Below are positions 4,940 through 16,745 of a DNA stretch of 64,000 nt, one piece after another. The notes beneath the pieces are model-generated. The model was not told the DNA's origin, searched no databases, and worked only from the letters and a program-made list of their open reading frames with translations. This stretch comes from Candidatus Dormibacteria bacterium (GTDB lineage Bacteria; Chloroflexota; Dormibacteria; Aeolococcales; Bog-877). The position numbers and the translations under genes were made by a program. How positions within the stretch are numbered: position 1 is the first letter of the stretch; every line of letters begins with the position of its first letter. Location of the stretch: NCBI GenBank assembly GCA_049518775.1, contig JBEKRL010000004.1, positions 4,968-68,967 on the forward strand, in the 5' to 3' direction.

Positions 4940-6898
4940 ATGGCGGCGATGGTGCGGGATCAGGGCGAGGTGGCCGTGTGGCCGGACGCGCAGGAGGTCA
5001 CGCCGCGCCGGACGGCCAGAAATCGGAGGACCGATTCTCCGACCGCGGCCGAGCTCGCCATCCGAGACCTGCTTCGGCCCAATGCCATCCGCCTCATGGT
5101 TCAACCTTTCAACCGCCTTTGCGACAAGGCCATTCTGGGTTATGAGATCCGCTGGCGAATCCCCCGGTTGGACGTCCTGCCGTCGCGCGAGGAGATCTGG
5201 GCCGCGGCCGAGGCTGCCGGCCTGCTGAGCACTCTGGACGACACCCTGCTCCGGGCCGAGCTGGAGGTGGCCGCTCGGCTGAGCCCCGGGGCGGTGACGT
5301 TGGAGCTGCATCCCTGGCGCTGGCATCGGCGGGGGGTCGTCGGGCTGCTCTCGAGGGAGGTCAAAGCGAGCGGGGTCGACCCCGGTGGGATCGTCTGGCA
5401 ACTGTTGGAGCAGGAGCACCTTGAGAGCGGCGTCATCTACGACATGTCCGCCCAGCTCCACGGGCGAGGCTTCAAGGTGGCGCTGGCCGGGCTGGGAGCC
5501 GTCCGGTCCCGGCTCTCGGACGCCGGCAAGGTCGAGCCTGACGTCATCCAGATGGCCCCGATCATGATCGAAGGAGTGGACCAGGACCGGGGTCAGCGTG
5601 CCATGGTCTCGGCTCTGGTCGGGTTCGCGCGCCAGATGGGCGCCTATCTTATTGCGGACGGGATCGCCGAGAAAGCGGAGCTCTCCACCCTCATCGACCT
5701 TGGGGTCCAGTTCGGCGATGGGCCCCTCCTCGGGGCCCCCTTCGACGCTGCTGGCGAGCTCCAGCCGCCCGGGCGGCTGCCGCTGCTCTCGCTTGACTCC
5801 CCGCCTCCCGTCGACGGTGACAAGCCGTCCAGTCAGGGGGCCGTCGCCAACTCCCGCCGCCGGGTCCGGAGCGTCCCCCTCCATTTCCAGCAGCTCGGAG
5901 TCGCCGAGGTCCTGACCCAGGCCGGCAGGGCCTTTCAGGCCGAGCACGATCTCCGCGCGATCGTTGAGCTGGCGGCCGACTATCTGGACCAGCTGGTCCC
6001 CTCGGACGGGATCGCCGTATATGAGGCGGACTGGGACTCGGGTCAGTTCCGGCCGATCCTGGCCCGCTCTTCCAAGGACCCCACCTATGCGGTGGGGGTG
6101 ATGGCTCACCCCTTCAGGTTCGGCATGGGACTCACCGGTTGGGCCTTCGACCAGGGGACGCCTCAGCGAGTCAATGACGCCGAGGCCCATCCGGCCGCAG
6201 GCCACCTCCCCGGCACCGCCCCGCAGGACGAGTCGATGCTGCTGCTGCCGCTCACCTCCGGCGACCACCGGCTGGGGATGCTGGACGTGGTCCGCTTCCG
6301 CCGCGACGCCTTCGTCGCCAACGAACTCATCGTGGGCGGACTGGTTGCCTACATGGCAGCCGCCGCCTGGTACAACGCCCAGCTCTATGTCGAGCAGGTG
6401 CAGCACGCCATCACCGATCCCCTCACCGGGTTGTTCAACACCAGGTGGCTCCAGGACGCCGACGGCCGGGAGTTGGCCATGGCCGAGCGCAACGGTACCG
6501 AGATGGCCCTCCTGATGATCGACCTCGATGACTTCAAGCAGATCAACGACAGCTGCGGCCACGCCGTCGGCGACGATATCCTGCACAGCGTCGGCCGGGT
6601 CCTCCAGGGGGCGATCAGGACCGACGATGCCGCGGTCCGCTGCGGGGGAGACGAGTTCGTCCTGGTCCTCCGGGGTTCCAGCCGGGAGGGGTCTCGGCGG
6701 ATCGCCCGCGAAGTCCGCAAGGGGCTTGCCGAGATCGCGCTTCCGGCTGCGAGCACCCTGCCTGTCGTCACCGCCTCGATAGGGATTGCCTATTTCCCCA
6801 GGCACGGTCGCACCATCGGCCAGCTGCTGGGGGTGGCGGATGGCGCCATGTACAGCGCCAAGCGCAGGGGCAAGGACCGAGTCCTGGCGGCCCGCTAG
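4940..6898 (+). CDS. c-di-GMP signalling protein, degenerate EAL - GAF - GGDEF (diguanylate cyclase with I-site)
   Basis: C-terminal GGDEF domain with intact RCGGDEF and RTDD I-site 5 aa upstream; central GAF-like region; N-terminal EAL-like domain with EAL->EIR and loss of DDFGTG/EGVE/KID motifs; ATG 4940 chosen (ORF open from TTG 4880); long antisense ORF 4655-6805 rejected. Confidence 0.8.
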   Translation: MAAMVRDQGEVAVWPDAQEVTPRRTARNRRTDSPTAAELAIRDLLRPNAIRLMVQPFNRLCDKAILGYEIRWRIPRLDVLPSREEIWAAAEAAGLLSTLDDTLLRAELEVAARLSPGAVTLELHPWRWHRRGVVGLLSREVKASGVDPGGIVWQLLEQEHLESGVIYDMSAQLHGRGFKVALAGLGAVRSRLSDAGKVEPDVIQMAPIMIEGVDQDRGQRAMVSALVGFARQMGAYLIADGIAEKAELSTLIDLGVQFGDGPLLGAPFDAAGELQPPGRLPLLSLDSPPPVDGDKPSSQGAVANSRRRVRSVPLHFQQLGVAEVLTQAGRAFQAEHDLRAIVELAADYLDQLVPSDGIAVYEADWDSGQFRPILARSSKDPTYAVGVMAHPFRFGMGLTGWAFDQGTPQRVNDAEAHPAAGHLPGTAPQDESMLLLPLTSGDHRLGMLDVVRFRRDAFVANELIVGGLVAYMAAAAWYNAQLYVEQVQHAITDPLTGLFNTRWLQDADGRELAMAERNGTEMALLMIDLDDFKQINDSCGHAVGDDILHSVGRVLQGAIRTDDAAVRCGGDEFVLVLRGSSREGSRRIAREVRKGLAEIALPAASTLPVVTASIGIAYFPRHGRTIGQLLGVADGAMYSAKRRGKDRVLAAR

Positions 6899-7123
6899 TC
6901 TTCGCTGACGCAGGCTGCCTTCTGACTGGCGCCGGGTGGAACCCGCGCTGGACCGCGATCTCGGGCACCTTGAGGGGACCTCGTGCCGGAGGCAGCCCGG
7001 CCGCGGCTGCGAACTCGGCGCCCGCCACCCAGACTGCGGCGGCGGCCGCCAACCCGGCAGAGGTACCGGCGGTCGCTCAGCCGGCGAGGCGTCACCCCAT
7101 ACGGCACCCGCCCGGCTGGGACA

Positions 7124-8608
7124 TCAGCTCTCAACCCCCTCGATTTCGACGTCGGCTGGATGTCCGTAGAATTCCGACTTCCCGAATACCTTAGACAGCA
7201 CCACGACGACGGCAGCCAGCACCAGCGTGACCACGAAGGTCAAGATGGTCTGGGCCGTCAGCCCGTGCAAGGTCTCCACCCCAATCCAGATGAGGACCAG
7301 TGCCCCGCCTACCGGCAGCAGGAGCCCGGTCACGAAGGACACGACGCTGGTGAGCACCACGCGCCGAAGCATCCACGCTGCGGTCAGGCCGGTGAGTGCG
7401 TAGTACACGACGAACATCAACCCGATGCTGCTGACGAGGTTGGTAAGCACAGTGCCGATGGTTCCCGTCGAGGACCACAGCGAGAACAGGAACATGGCAA
7501 ACGAAGGAACTGACAGGATGATCATGGCTAGCCACGGAGTCTTCGTCCGGTTGTTCACGGCGGCGAATACCTTGGGCAGAACGCCATCGCGTCCCATGGA
7601 GAATGCGACCCGGCCGAAGGTGATTATCGTGGTCTGAATCCCGCCTATGAAACTTGAGCAGATCGCCAACGCCAGAATGTCGCCCCAGGGGTGGCCGGCA
7701 AGATGGGTTCCGACATCGGCGAGCCAGGTGCCGGAGTTGGCCCCCATCTGCTTCGGGGAGACCAGGGTCAGGTAGAACATCGAGAGAACGACGGAAGCGA
7801 GAAGGACGCCAACCAGGGCCCAGATCCCAGCCAGACCGGGGTTCCGGAACCGGTGAGTGGTCTCCTCGTTCACCACGACAGCCGTCTCCCAGCCGGAGTA
7901 CCAGAACACCGTGATCAGCAGCCCGGAGAGAAGACCGCCTGTCCCCCCAGCGCCCGCGATGGTGAACCATTGTGGGCTGGGAGCCTTGGCGCCGACGGCG
8001 TGGGTGGTGAGCCCGTGAACCATGGCCCAAACACCGAACAGGGTGAAGACCGCCAGCTCACAGCTGGTGAGGACCCACTGGAAGCGCGCTGAAATCCTGA
8101 TCCCGCTCACCACCAGAACAGTGATGGCAAGCAAGAACACGGTCCCCGTGATCATGACGATGAAGTGGTTGGAGGCGTACTTTGGGGAGAAGAGTGTGAG
8201 CAGCGTCGTCGAGGCCGGAATGATCGAGAAGGCGTTGGAGACGACGAAGGCGAGGATGATCAAAATCCCCACAAACGCCCCGAGATACGGGCTGATGATC
8301 CGACCGATCCAGGCGTAGGAGATCCCGACGTCCGGCCGCCACCGGTTCAGGTAGTAGAAGCCGAAGGCGATCCCGACGAGGGGAAGAAAGCCCACGAACA
8401 GGGCGAACAGCGCTCCGTACCCGGAGGCGCCGGCAAGTGACGCCAGGACCCCGGCCAGGCTGACCCCCGGCGCTGCGCTGGCGAACCCGAGGACGATGCC
8501 GGAGGTGGCGCCGATGGCATTCTCCCGAAGAGGGCGGTGGCGGGGCTGCTGGGCCTGGAACTCACCCCCGGGGCCGACCTCTGCTCCCTTGCTGTCCGAG
8601 ACGCCCAT
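7124..8608 (-). CDS. APC family amino acid/polyamine permease
   Basis: 12-TM hydrophobic profile with APC-like segments; ATG at 8608 with GGAGG RBS; upstream ORF extension judged non-coding. Confidence 0.8.
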   Translation of the reverse strand: MGVSDSKGAEVGPGGEFQAQQPRHRPLRENAIGATSGIVLGFASAAPGVSLAGVLASLAGASGYGALFALFVGFLPLVGIAFGFYYLNRWRPDVGISYAWIGRIISPYLGAFVGILIILAFVVSNAFSIIPASTTLLTLFSPKYASNHFIVMITGTVFLLAITVLVVSGIRISARFQWVLTSCELAVFTLFGVWAMVHGLTTHAVGAKAPSPQWFTIAGAGGTGGLLSGLLITVFWYSGWETAVVVNEETTHRFRNPGLAGIWALVGVLLASVVLSMFYLTLVSPKQMGANSGTWLADVGTHLAGHPWGDILALAICSSFIGGIQTTIITFGRVAFSMGRDGVLPKVFAAVNNRTKTPWLAMIILSVPSFAMFLFSLWSSTGTIGTVLTNLVSSIGLMFVVYYALTGLTAAWMLRRVVLTSVVSFVTGLLLPVGGALVLIWIGVETLHGLTAQTILTFVVTLVLAAVVVVLSKVFGKSEFYGHPADVEIEGVES

Positions 8609-9090
8609 GCTTCTTCCTCCCCGAGCGGTCGGCGAAATGGGAGCCATCATAGCCCCGGATGTCTGGGCAGTCAATAGACATCAGTTGACAGACAACAGCC
8701 TCTCTGAGTAGAGTCCCCCCCATGCCGTCGTCGTGGGTCAGGTCTGACTTCGGCTGGAACTGGAGAGCGGCGGGCGTCCGAGAGTCGGCCGGCGCGGGCC
8801 AAGGAGCCGCGCCGCCGCCCACGGGCGGTGCTGCCGCCGCACTCGACCGGTTGCGGAGACCGAGAGCCGAGGGACAGGGGCCACCACCTGCCGTGGCCTC
8901 TTGAGTCAGCGCGGCGCTGGGTGTCCCAGGCCGGTACGCCCGTCGCGGCGAGAAGAGCCGGGGTGCAGAACTGGGGCCGGACCGCGGCCCGGCCACGCCG
9001 GCCGCCCTGGGCCCGAGCCCAGGTGCCCCGACGGTACCGTCAAGACGCTCTCGTGATTTGGCAGTGCGACATAGACTGGAGGCATAGGAC

Positions 9091-10140
9091 ATGGCCGCCG
9101 AAGATCAAGACCCCATGGCAGAGAACCGCCCCGGCGATGTAGCTGGTCACGCCCCTCAACTGGTCTTCGGGCGCGGGATCCTGGCGCCGGCGATCGCGGA
9201 TCTGCCGCGGCCGTATGCCTTGCTGGCCCAGCCGGAGCCGCTGGAGTTCGTTCCTCCCGAGGTCAGGGGTGAGGCGGCCTACGTCGGGTTGGTGACGTCG
9301 CTGGAGGAGGAGGTCCTCGAGCGCTGGGACCGCCTGGTCCCGCCTGTGGCTGCGGTGCTCGGGTTGGGGGGAGGCACGGCGATGGACTCGGCCAAGTACG
9401 TGGCGTGGCGCCGAGGCCTGGCACTGTTCGAGGCCCCGTCGGCGGTGAGCGTGGACGCCTCCGTCACCAACACCGTGGCCGTCCGCAGCGGCGGGCGGGT
9501 CGAGTACCGGGGCTTCGTCACCGCCGACCGCGTATTCGTGGACTTCGGCCTCGTCCAGACTGCTCCCGTCCAGATGAACCGTGCCGGGGTGGGGGACCTG
9601 CTCTCGATCCACACAGCGCTCTGGGACTGGCGCCTGGCTGATGAGCGCGGCCGGTCGCGGCTGGTTCCGGCCTTCGCCGAGCGGGCCGAGACGATCCTTG
9701 ATCGGGTGGAGTCGCTCAGCGGAGAGATCCGGGATGTTTCCGACCGGGCCGTGGAAGCCATCGTGCGGGCCTACCTTGAGGTCAACGACATGGTGGCCGA
9801 ACTCGGCCACGCCCAGGTCGAAGAGGGTTCCGAGCACTACTTCGTCTATTGCCTCGAGCGGGTGACTGGCCGTTCCTTCGTGCATGGCGAGGTTGTGTCG
9901 TTGGGAACCGTACTGATGGGGTTCCTGCAAGGCGGTCGCACCGACCGCCCGCTCAAGATCGCTGAGCGTGCCGGGGTGCGCTGGCGGGCCACCGAGCTCG
10001 GGATCTCACGCGAGGAGTTGATCGAGACGCTGCGACGCCTGCCCTCCTTCGTGCGTGAGTCCTCACTCTCCTACTCGGTCATCAACGAGGTCTCGTTCGA
10101 CGAAGCATCGATAAATCACCTGGTGGAACTCGCATCGTGA
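9091..10140 (+). CDS. Fe-ADH_2 family NAD(P)-dependent dehydrogenase (glycerol-1-phosphate dehydrogenase/AraM-like, DHQS superfamily)
   Basis: GGGTAMDSAKYVA nucleotide-binding motif and ~350 aa length characteristic of G1PDH/Fe-ADH_2; first gene of 5-gene coupled operon. Confidence 0.6.
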   Translation: MAAEDQDPMAENRPGDVAGHAPQLVFGRGILAPAIADLPRPYALLAQPEPLEFVPPEVRGEAAYVGLVTSLEEEVLERWDRLVPPVAAVLGLGGGTAMDSAKYVAWRRGLALFEAPSAVSVDASVTNTVAVRSGGRVEYRGFVTADRVFVDFGLVQTAPVQMNRAGVGDLLSIHTALWDWRLADERGRSRLVPAFAERAETILDRVESLSGEIRDVSDRAVEAIVRAYLEVNDMVAELGHAQVEEGSEHYFVYCLERVTGRSFVHGEVVSLGTVLMGFLQGGRTDRPLKIAERAGVRWRATELGISREELIETLRRLPSFVRESSLSYSVINEVSFDEASINHLVELAS

Positions 10141-10928
10141 CTTCACCGCGGGGTGCGCTCCGGATCGTTCCCGATCCCATCGATCAGTTGCAGCCGGTGG
10201 TCAGTGACCCGCGGTCTCTGTCAGTCCAGATCGCTGAACGAATCCGTCAACTCATCTCCGACGGGGCCCTCGGCCCCGGCGAGCGGCTGCCCACTGAGGC
10301 GGGATTCGCGTCCCGGTTCAGGGTGGGAAGGACGACCGTCCGCGAGGCGCTGAAACTCCTCGAGAACGACGGGCTCATCCAGGTGAGGAGGGGGCGGGGC
10401 CGATTTGTTTCCGCAACGCCCTTGGTCCGACGTCCGCTCACCCGGCTGGAGGGAGTGACGGAGATGATGGAGGCGTGCGGGTACGACGTCACCAACCGCG
10501 TCGTGTCCGTCACCGTGGAACGGCCGACGCCGGAGGAGCGGGAGGTTCTTCAGCTTCCCGATGGCGCCGACGTGATTCGTCTGGAACGCATCCGCCTGCA
10601 TCGCGGGGAGCCCTACATTCTCTCTCTCGACGTCATCCCGCGCTCCCACTTCGCCGAGGATATTGGCGCACTCGACTGGAGCGGGTCGCTCCTGGCTCTG
10701 CTTGAGGCTCGTGGCGCGATGCCCGCCTTTGCCGTGGCGCGGGTCTCTGCCGTGCAGTTGCCGCGGGCTCTCCTGCGTCGGCACAAACTGGCCAGCGGCG
10801 TCCCGTGGCTGCTGATGATTCAGACCAACACCACCGAGGAAGGGGTGCCCGTGATCTACTCTCACGACTATCACCGAGGCGACTGTTTCACGTTCGACGT
10901 CCTGCGCCGGGTGGAGAGGCGGCCATGA
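10137..10928 (+). CDS. GntR family transcriptional regulator, HutC subfamily (UTRA effector domain)
   Basis: N-terminal GntR wHTH (LPTEAGFASRFRVGRTTVREALKLLENDGLI) + C-terminal UTRA-like domain; GTG start overlaps upstream stop (GTGA). Confidence 0.8.
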   Translation: MTSPRGALRIVPDPIDQLQPVVSDPRSLSVQIAERIRQLISDGALGPGERLPTEAGFASRFRVGRTTVREALKLLENDGLIQVRRGRGRFVSATPLVRRPLTRLEGVTEMMEACGYDVTNRVVSVTVERPTPEEREVLQLPDGADVIRLERIRLHRGEPYILSLDVIPRSHFAEDIGALDWSGSLLALLEARGAMPAFAVARVSAVQLPRALLRRHKLASGVPWLLMIQTNTTEEGVPVIYSHDYHRGDCFTFDVLRRVERRP

Positions 10929-12049
10929 TGGCGGAGAGCGGGCCCCCAGTGATCCTGGCCGAGGACGCGAGACGATGGCACGCCAAGATTGCAGGCGAGT
11001 TGCGGGCGGCATTCGAGGATGTTCTTGAGGTCGGCAAATTCACCATGGGCCGCCACCTCTCGGCCTTTGAGGGAGAGTTCGCCGCCTACAGTGGGGCGCG
11101 CGCCTGCGTCGGCACTTCGAGCGGGACCTCGGCGCTGCAGCTGGCGCTGCTGGCCCTTGGAGTTGGCCCGGGTGACGAGGTCATCACGGTGCCGAACACC
11201 TACGTTGCGACCGCGTTCGCCGTGACCTATGTGGGGGCGGTGCCGGTGTTCGTCGACGTCGACCCCATCACGTACAATCTCGACCCGCAGAGGATTGCGG
11301 AGGTCCGCACCGATCGCACCCGGGCGGTGTTGCCCGTGCACATGTACGGACAGGCCGCTGATGTCGACGCTATCCGCCACGTCGCCCCCGACCTGCCTAT
11401 CCTGGAGGACGCAGCTCACGCCCATGGGGCGACGCTGGGGGAGCGGAGGGCTGGCAGTCTCGGGGATCTGGCTGCATTCTCGTTCTATCCGACCAAGGTC
11501 CTGGGCGCGCTCGGAGATGGCGGAGCCATCACCACCTCACGTGAGGATCTTGAGCAGCGAGCGCGCCAGCTCCGCTACATGGGACAGCGGGCGATCAAGC
11601 ATGACCATGAGGCGCTCGGCTACCAGGAGCGGCTGGATGAAATGCAGGCGGCTTTCCTTCAGGTGAAGCTTCGTCAACTTGAGGACCAGATCGCCGGTCG
11701 CCGCCGGGTGGCGGCCGCCTACCGAGAGCTACTTGCGGGAACGCCGCTCACCCTGCCCGCACATGATGTGAGCGGTCGGCACGTGTACTACATGTTCACC
11801 GTGCTTGCCCCCTCCCGGGACGCCTTGGCACGACATCTGCTCGACCGCGGCATCACGACGCAGGTGATCTACCCGAGGCTGGTTCCTGAGCAGAAGGCTT
11901 ACCGTGACTTGCCCTGGCGCGCCGGCGAGCTGCCGGTGGCGAAGAACCTTCCCTCTCGAATCCTCTGCTTGCCCATGTTCGCGGAGCTTTCAACGGCCGA
12001 GATCGAGCGGGTCGCAGAGGCAATCCGGGAATTCTACGGACCTAGCTGA
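10925..12049 (+). CDS. DegT/DnrJ/EryC1/StrS family sugar aminotransferase (PLP-dependent)
   Basis: fold-type I sugar aminotransferase motifs incl. catalytic Lys region SFYPTKVLGALGDGGAI; ATG 10925 overlaps GntR stop (ATGATGA). Confidence 0.85.
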   Translation: MMAESGPPVILAEDARRWHAKIAGELRAAFEDVLEVGKFTMGRHLSAFEGEFAAYSGARACVGTSSGTSALQLALLALGVGPGDEVITVPNTYVATAFAVTYVGAVPVFVDVDPITYNLDPQRIAEVRTDRTRAVLPVHMYGQAADVDAIRHVAPDLPILEDAAHAHGATLGERRAGSLGDLAAFSFYPTKVLGALGDGGAITTSREDLEQRARQLRYMGQRAIKHDHEALGYQERLDEMQAAFLQVKLRQLEDQIAGRRRVAAAYRELLAGTPLTLPAHDVSGRHVYYMFTVLAPSRDALARHLLDRGITTQVIYPRLVPEQKAYRDLPWRAGELPVAKNLPSRILCLPMFAELSTAEIERVAEAIREFYGPS

Positions 12050-12051
12050 CG

Positions 12052-13281
12052 ATGCGATTCGCGGTCCTTGGCGGCAACGCGGCGTCGACGCTGCAGCTCG
12101 TCGATGCCATCGCCGCCTGGCCGGGCGGCCAGGATCGCAGGCCTGAGATAGAGCTGATTCTCCACGGGCGGTCCTCCGAGCGGCTGGGCCTGATGGCGGC
12201 GGCGTGCCGTGCGCGGGCTGGACAGCTTGGCTTGGACCTTCGCGTGGTCGGCGAGGCCCAGCGCCCGGCGGCTCTGGACGGCGCGGACGTCGTCCTCAAC
12301 CAGATACGCGTCGGCGGCCTGCAGGCGCGCTCCGTCGATGAATCGTTGGCCCACGACTTCGGCCTGCCTGGTGAGGAGACGTTGGGCCCGGGGGGCTTCG
12401 CCTGCGCGGTGCGCACGGTTCCTGCGCTGCGTCCGGTCTGGGGTGATGTCGCCCACTATGCGACGGGCAGCTTGGTGATCAACCTGACGAATCCCGCCGG
12501 GATCGTCCAGCAGGCTGCCAGGGCCGGGTTCGAGCTGGAGGTCGTAAGCGTCTGCGACAGCCCGGTGACCCTGCTCGACAGTGTCGCTGCGCGCCTGGGC
12601 CGGGGGAGCCAGGAGGTGCGATCACGGTACGTGGGGATGAACCACGTTGGCTGGTACCTGCCAGCGGACCTGGCCGAGCTGGACTCCCTGGGAGGCTTGG
12701 TCGAGGGGATTGACCCTGCACTTCCGCAGCTGCACGCAGGCCTGCCGAGCGCCTACCTGCGCTACTACGTGCATCCTGACCGTGTACTTAGGGCGCAGTT
12801 GGGTCGGCCCACCCGTGCCCAGGAGTTGATGCGCATCCAGGAGGAGGTGCTGGGGTCGCTGCGGGGCGGGCCGGGCTCGATCTCCACGCCCTGGAAGCGG
12901 AGGGCGGTTTGGTACTCGCTCGCGGTTGTGCCGCTGGTCGATGCCTGGTTCAACGGGTCGGAGGAGACGCTCATCGTCGGCCTGCCCAACCGAGGACGCA
13001 TCCCCTGGCTCCACGACGATGTCGTGATCGAGGCTGCGATCGCGATCCGGGTTCCTCAACGCCTGGACGTCCTCCCGCTGCCTGCCGTCCCCGAGCTGCC
13101 GCGCGCGCTCCTGTCCCAGCAGGCGGCGTTCGAGACTCTGACGACCCGGGCGCTGCTTGGGGCCGCCACCGAGGAAGGGCTGACACGAGCCTTGCTGGCG
13201 AACCCCATGGTGCGAAGCGTCGACCAAGCGCGTGGGCTGGTGGATGCCATCCGCCGAAGCGTGGAAGCTGGCCCTGGGTGA
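12052..13281 (+). CDS. glycoside hydrolase family 4 (NAD+/Mn2+-dependent 6-phospho-glycosidase-like) with atypical N-terminal dinucleotide motif
   Basis: GH4 signatures INLTNPAGIV, VCDSPV (catalytic Cys), GMNHVGWY; Rossmann motif reads VLGGNAAS instead of canonical IGAGS. Confidence 0.7.
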   Translation: MRFAVLGGNAASTLQLVDAIAAWPGGQDRRPEIELILHGRSSERLGLMAAACRARAGQLGLDLRVVGEAQRPAALDGADVVLNQIRVGGLQARSVDESLAHDFGLPGEETLGPGGFACAVRTVPALRPVWGDVAHYATGSLVINLTNPAGIVQQAARAGFELEVVSVCDSPVTLLDSVAARLGRGSQEVRSRYVGMNHVGWYLPADLAELDSLGGLVEGIDPALPQLHAGLPSAYLRYYVHPDRVLRAQLGRPTRAQELMRIQEEVLGSLRGGPGSISTPWKRRAVWYSLAVVPLVDAWFNGSEETLIVGLPNRGRIPWLHDDVVIEAAIAIRVPQRLDVLPLPAVPELPRALLSQQAAFETLTTRALLGAATEEGLTRALLANPMVRSVDQARGLVDAIRRSVEAGPG

Positions 13282-14300
13282 TGGACGGCTCGGCTGAGGT
13301 CCGCCATTCAGGGGTGCTGCTAGCTGCGGACGTCGGCGCTTCGAAGACTCTGGTTGCCTTGGTGGACCCTGGTCCCGGCGGTTGGACCTGGCTTGGCTCC
13401 CCGCTCCGCTTCGCGACACCTCAAGATCCAGCTGCCTTGGTCGAGCTGATCGCCCAGGCCGCTGAAGTGCGCGCCCGCGATGCCGGACGGTCGATCCGAG
13501 GCGCAGGGATAGCCATTCCCGGACCGCTCGATCCGGACCAGGGGATCGTTACCCATCTGCCGAATCTCGGCTGGCACAACGTCCCGTTCGCCAGGATGCT
13601 CACGGCTCGGCTTCACGTTCCCGTCGCCCTCAATGACGATGCTCGCATGGGCGCACTCGGGGAGTGGGCGGTCGGCGCCGGTCGAGGTACCAACATCCTC
13701 GTCTTCGTGGCGGTGAGCACGGGGATTGGCTCCGGCCTGGTGATCGACGGGCGCCCGTACGTCGGCGCCCATGGGTTCGCGGGCGAGTTTGGCCACATTG
13801 TCGTGGACCCCAACGGCCCTCGCTGTGGCTGCGGCCACCGAGGATGCGTCGAGGCCTATGCGGGTGGACTCGCCCTGGCGCGCGCCGCCTGCCGGGCGTG
13901 GCCGCGCCGTCGGCTCGAGGACGGGAGTCCATCTCCGCGAACCGCGAGCGATGTCTTCCGCCTGGCACGGCAGCACCATCCGGTGGCGGCCTCGCTCGTC
14001 GACCAGGCCACCGACGCCCTCGCCCTGGGGATCGGCGCCATCGCGGCCGTATTCGACCCCGGGTTGATCGTGATCGGTGGCTCGGTGGCAATGGGCGAGC
14101 GGCGCTGGCTCGCCTCGGTGGTGGCTCGCGCCCGCCAGCGCTGCATTGCGGATGCCGGCAGAGAGATACGGGTCGCCCCGCCGGGCCTGGGAGGCCTCTC
14201 CTCGCTGGCCGGGGCTGCCCAGCTTGCCATTGGCGTCGGCGGCGAGGGAGCAACTGTGCCGGTGACCTCGTCAGCAAACGGCCACGGCGATTCCGGATGA
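13281..14300 (+). CDS. ROK family sugar kinase (glucokinase/N-acetylglucosamine kinase-like)
   Basis: ROK motifs LAADVGASKT, GIGSGLVIDGRPYVGAHGFAGEFGH and Zn-binding CGCGHRGCVE; ATG overlaps GH4 stop (TGATG). Confidence 0.8.
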   Translation: MDGSAEVRHSGVLLAADVGASKTLVALVDPGPGGWTWLGSPLRFATPQDPAALVELIAQAAEVRARDAGRSIRGAGIAIPGPLDPDQGIVTHLPNLGWHNVPFARMLTARLHVPVALNDDARMGALGEWAVGAGRGTNILVFVAVSTGIGSGLVIDGRPYVGAHGFAGEFGHIVVDPNGPRCGCGHRGCVEAYAGGLALARAACRAWPRRRLEDGSPSPRTASDVFRLARQHHPVAASLVDQATDALALGIGAIAAVFDPGLIVIGGSVAMGERRWLASVVARARQRCIADAGREIRVAPPGLGGLSSLAGAAQLAIGVGGEGATVPVTSSANGHGDSG

Positions 14301-14577
14301 CCTAGGTGGTGGGAGCAAGCAGGGGGCCGGTCTTCGCCGTGGGATCGGGGAGGACGAGGGTCTCCAACACCTGGCCGGTGCGGTATCTGTCAGGTAACGC
14401 GGCCGGGCCCTTGCTAGCGGGGCTGGGCCCGACCCGGTGATGCTAGCTCCACAGAGGATGCCGAGCCTGCGGCTGCCTCCGTGGCGGAACTCCTTCCCCG
14501 GCACGGATCCCCATCAATCCGGCACCTTCTGATCGTCCGACCCCGATTCCGGCTCGAACCTCCGCCGCTTGGGAGAG

Positions 14578-15072
14578 TCAGCCCCGGCTCTGGTGCGACC
14601 CGCCCTCGAGGCATCGGTGGACGGCCGCCAGCACCTTGAGAAGGGCCTGGAGCTCCTGAGTGTCGAAGCCGCAGAGGAGCTGGAGCGCCTCCTGGTGGTG
14701 GTATCCGGAGGCCGCCTCGGCGGCGGCGATCCCCTCAGGCGAGAGCGCCGCGTGGACCACCCGGCGGTCGGCATCGTCACGGGTGCGGATCGCCAGCCCA
14801 TGCTCCTCCAGGCGGTCCAGAGCCGAGCTGGCGGAGGGCAGGCTGATCCCCAGCGCTTCCGCCAGCGCTCCCACCGTGGCGGGGCCGATCTCGTGCAGCA
14901 CCATCACCATGTGCATCTGCCCGACCGGCAGCTCTCGGTGGGCCCAGCGGCCTGCGGGCCCCTGGCGCCACTGCCGGGCTGCGGTCTCCTCCAGGGCGGC
15001 GAGCGCCTCCGCCCGAAGCTGGGTGCGGGCGGTGTCGGTTTGGAGGGCCTCGGTCGAGCCAGCGGTGGGCAT
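14578..15072 (-). CDS. MarR family transcriptional regulator
   Basis: MarR wHTH (MHMVMVLHEIGPATVGALAEALGISLPSASSALDRLEEHGL); ATG 2 nt after MFS stop, i.e. co-operonic with the pump. Confidence 0.75.
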   Translation of the reverse strand: MPTAGSTEALQTDTARTQLRAEALAALEETAARQWRQGPAGRWAHRELPVGQMHMVMVLHEIGPATVGALAEALGISLPSASSALDRLEEHGLAIRTRDDADRRVVHAALSPEGIAAAEAASGYHHQEALQLLCGFDTQELQALLKVLAAVHRCLEGGSHQSRG

Positions 15073-15074
15073 CG

Positions 15075-16745
15075 TCAGCCTCTCGGTGGGCCGGCCGCTA
15101 CCAGCTGCTCTTCCCGGGCCGGCTCGGCGGGTGCCTCGGTTGACTCGGCCGGCGGTGCCTCGTGATGGGTGGTGCGCAGTGGCAGCTCCTTGAGGAAGAG
15201 GGTCGCCACCACCGCCAACACTGAGACCACCAACCCGATCCGGAATGACGAGACGATGCCCTGGGCCAGGGCCTCGTGGATCGCTCTCACGATGGCGCCG
15301 ATGTAGGGATGGGCGACCGCGGGCAGGACGTGGGCCAGCTCGGCACCCAGGTTGCCCACCCCGGTGAGGCTGCTGTTAGAGCTGGACGAGAGGTGGCCGG
15401 CGAGCGACGCCGGCACTCCGGCTCGGGCCAGGTCCTTGGGGACCTCGGTGGTGACAGCCGCGGAGAGCGAGGTCCCGGCGATGGCGAGGCCGATGGTGCC
15501 GCCGATCTGACGAACGAAGGTCAGGGTGCTGGTGGCCACACCCAGCTGGTTGATGGGGACCGAGTTCTGCACCACCAGGATGTAGCCGGACATGGACGGC
15601 CCGATGCCGATCCCGAGCACGAACAGCCAGCTCCAGAGGGGAAGGTTGCCGGTGGTGGCGGTGAGCTGGGTCATCAGCAACAGTCCCACCGTGAGGATCG
15701 CCATCGAGCCGACCAAGAGGGCCTTGTACCTACCTGTGCGGGCGATCAGCAACCCGGCGCCGACGCTGGTCGCCATCAAGCCCAACAGCAGGGGCCAGAG
15801 CATGTAGCCGGAGGCAGTGGCGCTGATGCCCCGAACCGCCTGGTAGTAGCGGGGCATGAAGATCACCGCGATGAAGAAGGCGAAGGACATGAAGAAGATG
15901 GCCGCCTGCGAGGCCGCGTAGGTGCGGATCCGGAACAGGTGCAAGGGCAGGATCGGCTCCTTGGCCCGGCTCTCGATGTAGAGGAACACCAGTCCCAGCA
16001 GAGACCCCACCAGGATCAGCCCGCCGACCCGCCAGGAGAACCACGAGTAGGCGATCCCGGAGCTGCCCGAGAGGCCCTTTTCGGTGAGCCCGATCAGTAT
16101 CGGCACCAGCGCCATGGAGAAGACCAGGGCGCCCAGGTAGTCGATCGAGGGGCTGGCCCCCTCCCGCTTGTGGTTGGGAAGCTGGGTGGCGATGACCGCC
16201 AGGGCGACGATCCCGATCGGGAGGTTGACGTAGAAGACCCAGTGCCAGCTGATGTTGTCGGTGATCCAGCCGCCCAGGAAGGGCCCCACCAAGAACGCGA
16301 GCCCGAAGACGGCCCCAAAGAAGCCCTGGTACTTGCCCCGCTCGCGGGGGGTGAAGAGGTCACCGATGACCGCCAGGGCGATCGGGAAGAGGGCGCCGGC
16401 GCCCAGGCCCTGAAGGCCCCGGAACAGGATCAGCTCGGTCATGTTCTGGGAGAGCCCGGAGAGGGCGGAGCCGACCAGGAACAGCCCGATGCCGATGATC
16501 AGAAGCAGCTTGCGTCCGAAGAGGTCGGAGAGCTTGCCGTAGATGGGCACGGTGATGGTGCTGGTCAGCAGGTACGCGGTCACCACCCACACGTAGAGGT
16601 TGTTCCCGCCTAGGTCGGTCACGATGGTGGGCAGGGCCGTCCCTACGACGGTCTGGTCCAGGGCGCTGAGGAAGAGCCCCAGCATCACCGCCGCCACGAT
16701 GGCCAGCTTGGCGCGCTGGGAAAGGTGCATCACGGGTTGGGGCAT
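15075..16745 (-). CDS. MFS transporter, DHA2 (EmrB/QacA-like 14-TMS drug:H+ antiporter) family
   Basis: MFS motifs (GKLSDLFGRKLLLIIG, 14 hydrophobic segments, ~550 aa); ATG 16745 preferred over TTG 16751. Confidence 0.85.
   Translation of the reverse strand: MPQPVMHLSQRAKLAIVAAVMLGLFLSALDQTVVGTALPTIVTDLGGNNLYVWVVTAYLLTSTITVPIYGKLSDLFGRKLLLIIGIGLFLVGSALSGLSQNMTELILFRGLQGLGAGALFPIALAVIGDLFTPRERGKYQGFFGAVFGLAFLVGPFLGGWITDNISWHWVFYVNLPIGIVALAVIATQLPNHKREGASPSIDYLGALVFSMALVPILIGLTEKGLSGSSGIAYSWFSWRVGGLILVGSLLGLVFLYIESRAKEPILPLHLFRIRTYAASQAAIFFMSFAFFIAVIFMPRYYQAVRGISATASGYMLWPLLLGLMATSVGAGLLIARTGRYKALLVGSMAILTVGLLLMTQLTATTGNLPLWSWLFVLGIGIGPSMSGYILVVQNSVPINQLGVATSTLTFVRQIGGTIGLAIAGTSLSAAVTTEVPKDLARAGVPASLAGHLSSSSNSSLTGVGNLGAELAHVLPAVAHPYIGAIVRAIHEALAQGIVSSFRIGLVVSVLAVVATLFLKELPLRTTHHEAPPAESTEAPAEPAREEQLVAAGPPRG

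Follow-up and report, generated by a model that had tools for sequence, protein, structure and literature searches.

A conserved DegT-GH4 gene pair in a probable amino-sugar catabolic operon of Candidatus Dormibacteria and other uncultured bacteria

Glycoside hydrolases of family 4 (GH4) work through oxidation, beta-elimination, hydration and reduction by way of a 3-keto intermediate, and pathways are known in which C3 oxidation, beta-elimination, hydration and 3-keto reduction are divided among separate enzymes (PMC10628242). The levoglucosan dehydrogenase (LGDH) pathway, in which a C3 keto group is formed and later steps fall to other enzymes, is a further precedent for such a division (PMC7676230). 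Within amino-sugar metabolism, the csnR-csnEFG-csnH-csnK cluster of Streptomyces and Kitasatospora serves the uptake and processing of chitosan-derived glucosamine (GlcN) oligosaccharides (PMC5635096; bioRxiv 10.1101/2023.09.20.558697). Here we describe a five-gene operon in a 64-kb stretch of DNA (about 70% G+C; hereafter the window) from Candidatus Dormibacteria bacterium (GenBank assembly GCA_049518775.1, contig JBEKRL010000004.1, positions 4,968 to 68,967). In this operon an atypical GH4 gene follows a gene for a pyridoxal phosphate (PLP)-dependent sugar aminotransferase of the DegT/DnrJ/EryC1 family, and a glycerol-1-phosphate dehydrogenase (G1PDH)-like gene, a HutC-type regulator and a ROK-family kinase complete the unit (Table 1). 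The DegT-GH4 pair is the conserved core of this arrangement. We consider it probable that the operon serves the catabolism of an amino sugar or an amino-glycoside.

Like the window, the csn cluster brings together an intracellular GH4 enzyme and a ROK-family kinase in a locus for amino-sugar utilisation, a role that is putative here. It shares a CUT1 ABC importer with relatives of the window locus, which also carry a gene resembling those for GlcN-6-phosphate (GlcN-6-P) deaminases. However, the csn cluster has neither a DegT nor a G1PDH-like gene and is controlled by a ROK-type repressor, whereas the window has a HutC regulator and an APC permease; CsnH and CsnK are themselves presumed enzymes only. 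A GH4 gene beside a ROK regulator in Nonomuraea, which served as a stand-in for CsnH, encodes a protein that is 33% identical to the window GH4 and has a canonical cofactor site and a Cys-Asn motif. The replicon that carries it (NZ_LT559118.1) is the 11.85-Mb chromosome of Nonomuraea gerenzanensis, filed as 'plasmid' in PLSDB and almost unannotated.

The NtdABC/KabABC kanosamine pathway consists of a Gfo/Idh/MocA-type glucose-6-phosphate 3-dehydrogenase, the DegT-family enzyme NtdA and a phosphatase. It resembles the window operon in joining a DegT-family protein with a putatively C3-acting NAD(P) enzyme, and would share with it the interconversion of C3-OH, C3=O and C3-NH2 on glucose-6-phosphate. 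The known pathway serves biosynthesis, opposite in direction to what is proposed here, whereas the presumptive dehydrogenase here has a GH4 fold and is accompanied by an importer, a kinase and a HutC regulator. The window operon contains neither a Gfo/Idh/MocA gene nor a (HAD) phosphatase gene, and its DegT protein lacks the extra N-terminal domain of NtdA and is closer to the C3 aminotransferases of nucleoside diphosphate (NDP)-sugars (QdtB at 281 bits versus NtdA at 169 bits). Likewise, GnnA/GnnB and WbpB/WbpE pair a UDP-GlcNAc(A) 3-dehydrogenase with a DegT-homologous C3 aminotransferase to give 2,3-diamino sugars, and the window DegT is close to WbpE (254 bits); those enzymes act on UDP-sugars in envelope biosynthesis, whereas the cassette described here is without nucleotide-sugar enzymes. 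The Agrobacterium route (GlycDH, OGE, a hydratase and a Gfo reductase) resembles the model developed below in that the C3 keto group is made first, followed by elimination, hydration and 3-keto reduction (PMC10628242). In the known 3-keto-glycoside pathways, however, the keto group stems from oxidation of a hydroxyl and never from transamination of an amine, and the eliminases are sugar-phosphate-isomerase-like TIM-barrel Mn2+ enzymes rather than GH4 proteins. We know of no such pathway in which a transaminase performs the keto-forming step. A 2-deoxystreptamine-type cluster, with 2-deoxy-scyllo-inosose synthase (DOIS), an aminotransferase, glycosyltransferases and resistance genes, is not what the window contains.

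The distribution of the cassette was examined in a survey limited to a single genome per species, which yielded 80 loci; these were analysed by tblastn with the window proteins and their recurrent neighbours as queries and tallied. About 70 of these carry a GH4 gene with the cofactor-site switch described below. DegT lies directly upstream of GH4 on the same strand in 54 of them, and 5 of the 16 exceptions are contig ends. Counted over the species-level genomes that could be evaluated, about 65 in all, the adjacency holds in 54, which belong to Actinomycetota, Chloroflexota, Acidimicrobiia, Acidobacteriota and other groups. Recurrence of DegT-GH4(-ROK) synteny in over 50 such genomes of several phyla puts the arrangement far beyond chance. 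The other members are less constant: among the 54 genomes with the pair, ROK directly follows GH4 in 34, a G1PDH-like gene of one of two paralogous types lies within 8 kb in 25, and a HutC regulator is present in 14. All five genes occur together in seven genomes (Acidimicrobiales, Chloroflexia, Ktedonobacteraceae and Acidobacteriota) and in the metagenome loci L090 and L093, while a minimal version in Streptosporangiaceae consists of GntR-DegT-GH4. By identity across phyla DegT is by far the best conserved member (65-78%), ahead of GH4 (44-63%), ROK (34-62%) and the G1PDH-like enzyme (31-53%). The original prediction, made from the window alone, had read the locus as a five-gene block, which it is; it had overlooked the DegT-GH4 core, the NADP-like dinucleotide site of the GH4 protein and the divergent APC permease. 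A tblastn search of a plasmid collection returned only canonical 6-phospho-beta-glucosidases with at most 35% identity.

Genes that recur around the pair include CUT1 ABC importers, whose substrate-binding proteins (SBPs) are most like polyol- and trehalose-binding proteins, two kinds of APC permease, short-chain dehydrogenases/reductases (SDRs), DeoR or ROK regulators, NagB-II-like SIS proteins and a cupin-type phosphoglucose isomerase (PGI; PF06560). No gene for a glycosyltransferase, nucleotidyltransferase, cyclase or exporter is recurrent in the related loci, and neither glycosyltransferase nor resistance genes recur across more than 60 of them. The context therefore appears catabolic, with importers, repressors, a kinase, a deaminase/isomerase and a PGI, and the orthologous blocks adjoin importers and sugar-phosphate isomerases or deaminases rather than lying inside aminoglycoside or other biosynthetic clusters, a location that the original prediction had named as decisive against itself. 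The constant DegT-GH4 pair would have to perform the pathway-specific chemistry.

The closest relative of the window operon, L093, encodes proteins 77-92% identical to those of the window and has a sixth gene for a 365-residue SIS protein (6857-7954) that overlaps the ROK stop codon. This protein scores 208.7 bits against NagB-II GlcN-6-P deaminase and 203 bits against the isomerase domain of GlmS. No SIS gene was found anywhere in the 64-kb window except for a degraded remnant of about 90 nt after ROK; the nucleotide alignment with L093 continues to position 14383 and then ends. This final operon gene appears to have been lost in the window lineage. In four Chloroflexota loci (L020, 3590-5484; L022; L023, 9265-10104; L053) a PF06560 cupin PGI-like gene and a NagB-II-like SIS gene stand between GH4 and ROK, and this combination points to a hexose- or hexosamine-6-phosphate that leaves the pathway by way of fructose-6-phosphate. 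L020, L022 and L023 had suggested that the G1PDH-like gene and the SIS-plus-PGI set exclude each other; this idea was dropped, as L093, L042 and L048 carry both.

The GH4 proteins nearest to that of the window (61-63% identical) are found in Actinomycetota loci where DegT is replaced. There the order is ROK-DeoR-SBP-permease-permease-Gfo/Idh/MocA-GH4, beside a divergent GlmS/NagB-II-like SIS gene, and the Gfo/Idh/MocA oxidoreductase gene overlaps the start of GH4 in the usual place of DegT (L089, L007, L008, L017 and L050); the transporter genes encode a CUT1 ABC importer. In L089 the Gfo gene (8944-10004) is split into two open reading frames by a frameshift, probably a long-read assembly error, and both halves are present. 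An extended form of the cassette was also seen, in L047 (11259-16468) and similarly in L057, L064 and L051, all from Chloroflexia and Ktedonobacteraceae. It adds an APC permease, a weak metallophosphoesterase-like match, a ceramidase-like protein (neutral/alkaline type, PF04734, 51.8 bits) and a second G1PDH-like paralogue. These additions may mean that the substrate there is released from an N-acylated, phosphorylated glycolipid. Deacylation of glycosphingolipids or lipid A, prompted by the ceramidase-like and phosphoesterase-like genes of L047, L057 and L064, concerns too few loci and was kept as a lead.

Gene 4 matches Glyco_hydro_4 (PF02056) with 75.5 bits (cut-off 23.2) and Glyco_hydro_4C (PF11975) with 54.3 bits (cut-off 24.1), and its closest solved structures are 6-phospho-beta- and 6-phospho-alpha-glucosidases of 24-26% identity. 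An AlphaFold2 model built on 21 homologues (pLDDT 92.3) contains both the lactate dehydrogenase (LDH)-like Rossmann domain and the C-terminal fold of GH4. Foldseek aligned this model with the 6-phospho-alpha/beta-glucosidases 6dux, 1s6y, 5c3m, 1up6 and 1u8x at TM scores of 0.85-0.88, and less well with the non-phospho enzymes AglA, Agu4 and LplD (0.77-0.80). The fold is therefore that of the canonical enzymes GlvA, AglB, BglT and ChbF/CelF, which work with a phosphotransferase system (PTS) or with the ROK kinase BglK, and the neighbouring ROK gene of the window is a further likeness. Cys168-Asp169, Asn197-His198 and Tyr235 (in YLRYY) are invariant in the 21 homologues and align with the CD/CN, NH and YL(R/Q)YY motifs that in GlvA and BglT provide the acid, the base and the two Mn2+ ligands (Cys and His). 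Neither of these two catalytic ligands, on whose presence the original prediction hinged, has been lost. The Asp next to the Cys is the alpha-type motif, whereas enzymes of the ChbF/BglT type have Cys-Asn; together with the low identity to solved 6-phospho-glucosidases and to the canonical Nonomuraea protein, this leaves the analogy with ChbF and chitobiose that had been drawn originally a weak one.

It is in the dinucleotide site that the clade departs from canonical GH4 enzymes, whose NAD+ site combines a GxGS loop with an acidic residue where beta2 ends. The window protein has neither. Throughout the clade the loop GGGS(S/T)YTP has become GG(S/N)(A/G)xxT, which reads GGNA in the window (LGGNAAS, aligned to IGGGSSY of solved enzymes), and the NAD-ribose-binding Asp that ends beta2 (YDID, VDIP or YDND) has become (G/A)-Arg-(S/T). 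In the window model Gly39-Arg40-Ser41 directly follows the strand formed by residues 33-38. Canonical GH4 genes in the same set of loci keep GGGS and Asp as well as Cys-Asn. The non-canonical motif VLGGNAAS, to which attention had been drawn from the start, is therefore real and forms part of a clade-wide remodelling of the cofactor site. Among Rossmann folds of the LDH and malate dehydrogenase type, those that use NADP(H), such as the NADP-dependent malate dehydrogenases, are marked here by a small residue and then an Arg, so that by sequence the dinucleotide site of this clade would be of the NADP type. The clade also differs from canonical GH4 enzymes in its DegT or Gfo/Idh/MocA partner (with exceptions in L042 and Halanaerobiales) and in having no PTS. 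The only culturable handles that we found on the clade are two Halanaerobiales, Halanaerobacter jeridensis DSM 23230 (L049, 2686-9221) and Orenia metallireducens (L062). Their GH4 proteins, 37% identical to that of the window, have a GGSG loop, Gly-Arg-Thr after beta2 and Cys-Asp; in L049 the neighbouring genes encode a GH13 protein of the alpha-amylase family, a sugar symporter (MFS_1_like), a DUF362 protein carrying two 4Fe-4S motifs and a LacI regulator.

The DegT protein matches DegT_DnrJ_EryC1 (PF01041) with 372 bits and reaches none of the NCBIfam equivalogs (PseC, ArnB, WecE, DesI, NtdA and others), the best being PseC with 225.9 bits against a required 423.5. It keeps the catalytic Schiff-base lysine, since SFYPTK aligns with SFYPAK (Lys186) of QdtB, and does not have the histidine of 3-dehydrases. 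Its best solved relatives are 7b0d (308 bits) and then QdtB, DesV (259 bits) and WbpE; the last three are C3 aminotransferases and are the nearest solved relatives with a named regiochemistry. Inosose aminotransferases of the BtrR/StsC type score about 150 bits. A DegT protein 92% identical to that of the window (P0123) has been deposited under a 'Candidatus Saccharimonadales' metagenome-assembled genome (MAG). This label is implausible for an actinobacterial-type gene of 65-70% G+C, and the contig is probably mis-binned.

For the first gene, homology to AraM/EgsA had to be weighed against homology to DOIS and dehydroquinate synthase (DHQS). The protein narrowly passes the Pfam cut-off for Fe-ADH_2 (29.8 versus 28 bits) and reaches 104.9 bits against the NCBIfam G1PDH model NF002022, far below the cut-off of 413 bits; it is accordingly a G1PDH-like relative and not an EgsA or AraM orthologue. 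A profile of its family (22 homologues) matches the G1PDH structures 5fb3 and 4rgq with 148 and 119 bits, glycerol dehydrogenases (GldA) with 76-97 bits and DHQS with at most 43 bits, and two features of the G1PDH/GldA/DHQS superfamily, the GGG loop of the nucleotide site (G93-G95) and the metal-site residues Asp169, His249 and His265, are invariant among the homologues. These comparisons point to a G1PDH-type NAD(P)- and metal-dependent dehydrogenase and not to a sugar-phosphate cyclase, which removes a 2-deoxystreptamine-type biosynthetic reading. An assignment to DOIS within an aminoglycoside gene cluster was dropped on the same scores and on the lack of recurrent glycosyltransferase and resistance genes in the related loci.

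Gene 2 combines GntR (PF00392, 74.3 bits) with UTRA (PF07702, 86 bits), as in the HutC subfamily; no NCBIfam equivalog was reached, and 14 related genomes have an orthologue of 39-65% identity at the corresponding place. Regulators of the HutC/UTRA kind typically belong to catabolic operons, and they commonly sense GlcN-6-P or N-acetylglucosamine-6-phosphate (GlcNAc-6-P). In gene 5 the ROK domain (PF00480, 200.7 bits) spans residues 46-318 of 340, and the translation has an ATP motif (DVGASKT) and a zinc motif (CGCGHRGC). Because the ROK domain stands without an N-terminal helix-turn-helix, the product is read as a kinase; its best NCBIfam match is ROK glucokinase (153.8 bits, under the cut-off of 260). 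For all five genes Pfam and NCBIfam agree with the family assignments made originally.

The following model is consistent with these observations, and we advance it as a tentative one: DegT would deaminate a (3-)amino sugar or glycoside, GH4 would cleave the keto product, reduce it or do both, and ROK together with SIS (in relatives) would feed glycolysis. The unit would comprise the APC permease and the five-gene operon, expressed inducibly and with a sixth SIS gene in relatives. An amine-bearing sugar or small glycoside would enter through the APC permease in the window and, in many relatives, through a CUT1 ABC importer. DegT, working in the deaminating direction, would convert a ring amino group, most likely that at C3, to a ketone and pass the nitrogen to a 2-oxo acid. 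C3 is indicated because GH4 enzymes proceed through a 3-keto intermediate and the nearest DegT relatives of known regiochemistry act at that carbon. The resulting 3-keto sugar or glycoside would be the very intermediate that a GH4 enzyme ordinarily generates through its own NAD+ oxidation. A 3-amino glycoside is not oxidisable by GH4, and its transamination would give the same intermediate; the overall reaction would be a net reduction. GH4 would take the pre-formed keto compound, eliminate the aglycone and add water with its Mn2+/Tyr/Asp machinery, and then reduce C3 with NAD(P)H; a net reduction of this kind would explain the switch to an NADP(H)-type site. Where the substrate carries a hydroxyl in place of the amine, a Gfo/Idh/MocA dehydrogenase in the DegT position would supply the keto group, and the model would thereby explain why the one gene replaces the other. 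The G1PDH-like enzyme, or an SDR in some relatives, would reduce the free keto-sugar(-phosphate) product, ROK would phosphorylate the released hexose or hexosamine, and the SIS protein of relatives would finish the route. Kanosamine-type 3-amino glycosides and 2,3-diamino sugars are candidate substrates. In its strictest form, which may be called transamination-primed beta-elimination, DegT would make 3-keto-glycosides and an NADPH-loaded GH4 would skip oxidation altogether before eliminating the aglycone and reducing C3; this form is more doubtful than the model at large.

Our full-text literature search found no description of a catabolic DegT+GH4 cassette. The conserved core and the GH4 clade with its altered cofactor site appear to be undescribed, while the component families are known and sugar-catabolic operons are ordinary. 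As to function, the original prediction had proposed utilisation or remodelling of amino sugars or amino-glycosides; utilisation is the best reading of the present evidence, and remodelling finds no support in it.

Several points weigh against the model. The NADP-type assignment draws on general knowledge of Rossmann folds, and a GH4 enzyme with tightly bound NAD(P)+ could run a redox-neutral cycle as an ordinary glycosidase. The Halanaerobiales GH4 proteins show the same cofactor-site switch and have no DegT or Gfo partner, from which it follows that the motif by itself does not imply a keto-supplying partner; L042, too, has GH4-ROK-SIS and two G1PDH-like genes with no DegT. The C3 regiochemistry of DegT is deduced solely from the best-scoring solved relatives, and the top match, 7b0d, carries an uninformative name. 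The model is weakest in the part that it gives to the G1PDH-like enzyme. Uptake through an APC permease speaks for a small substrate, which could be a monomer with no glycosidic bond to cut, and 3-amino and 2,3-diamino sugars are not known to abound in peat soils. In addition, the carriers found for the DegT-GH4 pair are all MAGs or metagenome contigs, most of them of peat, permafrost and soil origin.

Other readings must be set beside this model, and one of them shifts the work of DegT from the sugar to the aglycone. ROK would phosphorylate a hexosaminyl-cyclitol or -polyol (a mycothiol- or aminoglycoside-like pseudodisaccharide), GH4 would act as an ordinary (6-phospho-)alpha-glycosidase, the hexosamine-6-phosphate would pass to the SIS deaminase, and DegT (acting on an amine) or Gfo (on a hydroxyl) would convert the inosamine- or inositol-type aglycone to an inosose for processing by the G1PDH-like enzyme or an SDR. 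An aglycone bearing either amine or hydroxyl fits the DegT-to-Gfo swap equally well. NagB-II-like SIS and ROK genes adjoin GH4, the Cys-Asp motif is that of alpha-specific 6-phospho-glucosidases, the linked SBPs resemble polyol- and trehalose-binding proteins, the L089 Gfo protein weakly matches inositol 2-dehydrogenase (45 bits), and the DegT family includes the inosose aminotransferases, with detectable similarity here. We nevertheless regard this reading as unlikely. DegT is closer by score to the C3 aminotransferases of NDP-sugars than to those that act on inososes, no iolE/D/B/C-type or other cyclitol-catabolic genes recur in the clusters, the NADP-like site is left unexplained, and the tight coupling of DegT and GH4 would join non-consecutive steps; we know of no abundant natural glycosyl-inosamine. 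Somewhat less likely again is the salvage of a monomer by a reversal of the Ntd/Kab route, in which the APC permease imports a free 3-amino hexose such as kanosamine, ROK phosphorylates it, DegT gives 3-oxo-glucose-6-phosphate and the GH4 homologue is only an NADPH-dependent 3-ketoreductase that cuts no glycosidic bond. The NADP-like site suits such a reductase, the permease and the SBPs resembling binders of polyols and monosaccharides suggest a small substrate, NtdA is a detectable DegT homologue, the best ROK match is glucokinase-like, and the Streptosporangiaceae GntR-DegT-GH4 version suffices for amine to ketone to alcohol. However, Tyr235 and Asp169 are kept, and these are needed for elimination rather than for simple hydride transfer; the additional reductases (G1PDH-like and SDR) would be redundant, and the DegT-less relatives with the same cofactor switch sit in loci of oligosaccharide type, with GH13 and sugar transporters.

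A csn-like operon for chitosan or GlcN oligosaccharides, with GH4 and ROK as counterparts of CsnH and CsnK, SIS as GlcN-6-P deaminase, and DegT and the G1PDH-like enzyme as accessories or for side-products, has the pairing of GH4 and ROK kinase in the actinomycete cluster in its favour, along with the usual effectors of HutC regulators, the NagB-II-like SIS proteins and the CUT1 importers of relatives. We think it improbable. DegT is the most conserved and most constant member and so no accessory, the regulator is HutC and not a ROK-type CsnR, no chitosanase lies nearby, and the distant Nonomuraea protein keeps GGGS, Asp and Cys-Asn. Biosynthesis of an amino sugar or aminocyclitol (kanosamine- or 2-deoxystreptamine-like) is the least likely rival and, in our estimate, a very improbable one; ROK would make glucose-6-phosphate, the GH4- or the G1PDH-like protein would oxidise or cyclise it, DegT would aminate it and the APC permease would export the product. 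A kinase, two NAD(P) enzymes and a DegT protein do formally resemble the NtdC/NtdA or DOIS/aminotransferase/dehydrogenase sets, and the DegT family is overwhelmingly biosynthetic. Yet gene 1 is of the G1PDH type and not a cyclase, many orthologous cassettes are transcribed together with SBP-dependent ABC importers, genes for deaminase-like SIS proteins and PGI lie alongside, genes for phosphatases, glycosyltransferases and resistance do not recur, and the HutC/UTRA regulator belongs to a type found in catabolic operons. Two further candidates were discarded. A fructosamine (frl-like) system had been prompted by the combination of APC or ABC transport, HutC, SIS and kinase, but the SIS protein scores 36 bits against FrlB versus 209 bits against NagB-II, and a secondary amine is not a substrate for a PLP transaminase. 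The pyrrolamide pathway with a 'GH-like dehydratase' and a DegT enzyme proved irrelevant, since its enzyme is GH42-like and acts on GDP-sugars (PMC12983305).

The gene structure agrees with a single operon, as first proposed: the five open reading frames are co-directional and tightly packed, and the same five were called independently on six metagenome contigs with an identical operon. The statement that all five genes overlap by 1-4 nt holds for three junctions, read directly from the sequence. Genes 1/2 and 2/3 overlap by 4 nt (GTGA and ATGA) and genes 4/5 by 4 or 1 nt (GTGA or TGATG, depending on the start chosen), whereas DegT and GH4 are separated by a 2-nt spacer (TGAcgATG).

Table 1. 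Features of the operon and its surroundings, in window positions.
Feature	Position	Strand	Length	Basis
APC-superfamily permease (AA_permease_2), divergent from the operon	7124-8608	-	494 aa	gene call and Pfam
Divergent control region	8609-9090		482 bp	promoter scan, comparison with L093
Gene 1, G1PDH/AraM-like NAD(P)- and metal-dependent polyol(-phosphate)/keto-sugar dehydrogenase (Fe-ADH_2)	9091-10140	+	349 aa	
Gene 2, HutC-subfamily GntR regulator (winged helix-turn-helix and UTRA effector domain)	10137-10928	+	263 aa	
Gene 3, DegT/DnrJ/EryC1-family PLP sugar aminotransferase	10925-12049	+	374 aa	
Gene 4, atypical GH4, fold of NAD(P)/Mn2+-type redox-elimination glycosidases	12052-13281	+	409 aa	
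Gene 5, ROK-family sugar kinase without DNA-binding domain	13281 (ATG) or 13278 (GTG) to 14300	+	339/340 aa	
Degraded 5' remnant of a NagB-II-like SIS gene	14300-14390	+		alignment to L093

The divergent APC permease belongs to the unit. It starts at ATG 8608 with GGAGGAA ahead of the start codon and has only generic amino-acid/polyamine transporter matches in NCBIfam; in L093 a permease of 92% identity holds the same position, and APC permeases also flank the cassette in L011, L055, L047, L051, L057, L061 and L064. It is a candidate importer of the amine-bearing substrate. A promoter scan of the control region gave two sites, where 0.3 were expected, in the form of back-to-back sigma70-like promoters at 8674-8646 (minus strand) and 8685-8714 (plus strand). 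Their -35 boxes form a palindrome, AGTCAA-N10-TTGACA, which is a candidate operator, possibly for the HutC regulator; the HutC-type protein is the presumed repressor of both operon and permease. L093 retains the palindrome block as well as the 130 nt ahead of ATG 9091, with an indel in the middle of the spacer. The operon leader of about 370 nt is followed by a ribosome-binding site (GGAGG) upstream of ATG 9091. An Rfam search of this leader gave no match and its folding z-score was 0 against shuffled sequence, and a riboswitch or other structured leader was therefore dropped. The G+C content at third codon positions (GC3) is 0.76-0.83 in the permease and the five operon genes versus 0.86-0.92 in the flanking genes (GGDEF/EAL, MarR, MFS, DnaJ-like, MetRS and GT4), and in L093 a resolvase gene lies just downstream of the operon. 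The lower GC3 and the neighbouring resolvase suggest lateral acquisition of the permease and operon. Convergent with the operon on the minus strand (14578-16745) are a MarR regulator and an MFS transporter with 14 transmembrane segments by type (Sugar_tr/TRI12/MFS_1). Their position is conserved on the identical contigs and the pair is absent in L093; it is probably an unrelated efflux pair.

Should the function prove to be plain hydrolysis of glucosaminides, the finding would reduce to a new GH4 subfamily and an unexplained aminotransferase. If the strictest form of the proposed model is true, the cassette would encode the first catabolic route for 3-amino sugars, for example those of kanosamine-type antibiotics or of the GlcN3N backbone found in many lipid A molecules, and we know of no degradation routes for such rare amino sugars. 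It would also contain the first GH4 subfamily to act as a net reductase with an obligate keto-supplying partner, either DegT or Gfo/Idh/MocA, and the clade offers a test of whether the single-site cycle of oxidation, elimination and reduction is divisible, with an external keto donor to drive it. DegT enzymes are known almost only from biosynthesis, on nucleotide sugars, and a conserved catabolic member acting on free or phosphorylated sugars would widen the role of the family. The route, if true, appears to be spread widely among Chloroflexota and Actinomycetota of peat and soil that have not been cultured, and would show how soil bacteria recover carbon and nitrogen from rare 3-amino and diamino sugars of antibiotics, O-antigens and lipid A. 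The amino sugars of necromass are a large soil nitrogen pool, and the cassette, which occurs commonly among MAGs of Chloroflexota, Acidimicrobiia and Streptosporangiaceae-like Actinomycetota from peat and soil, may therefore matter for their turnover.

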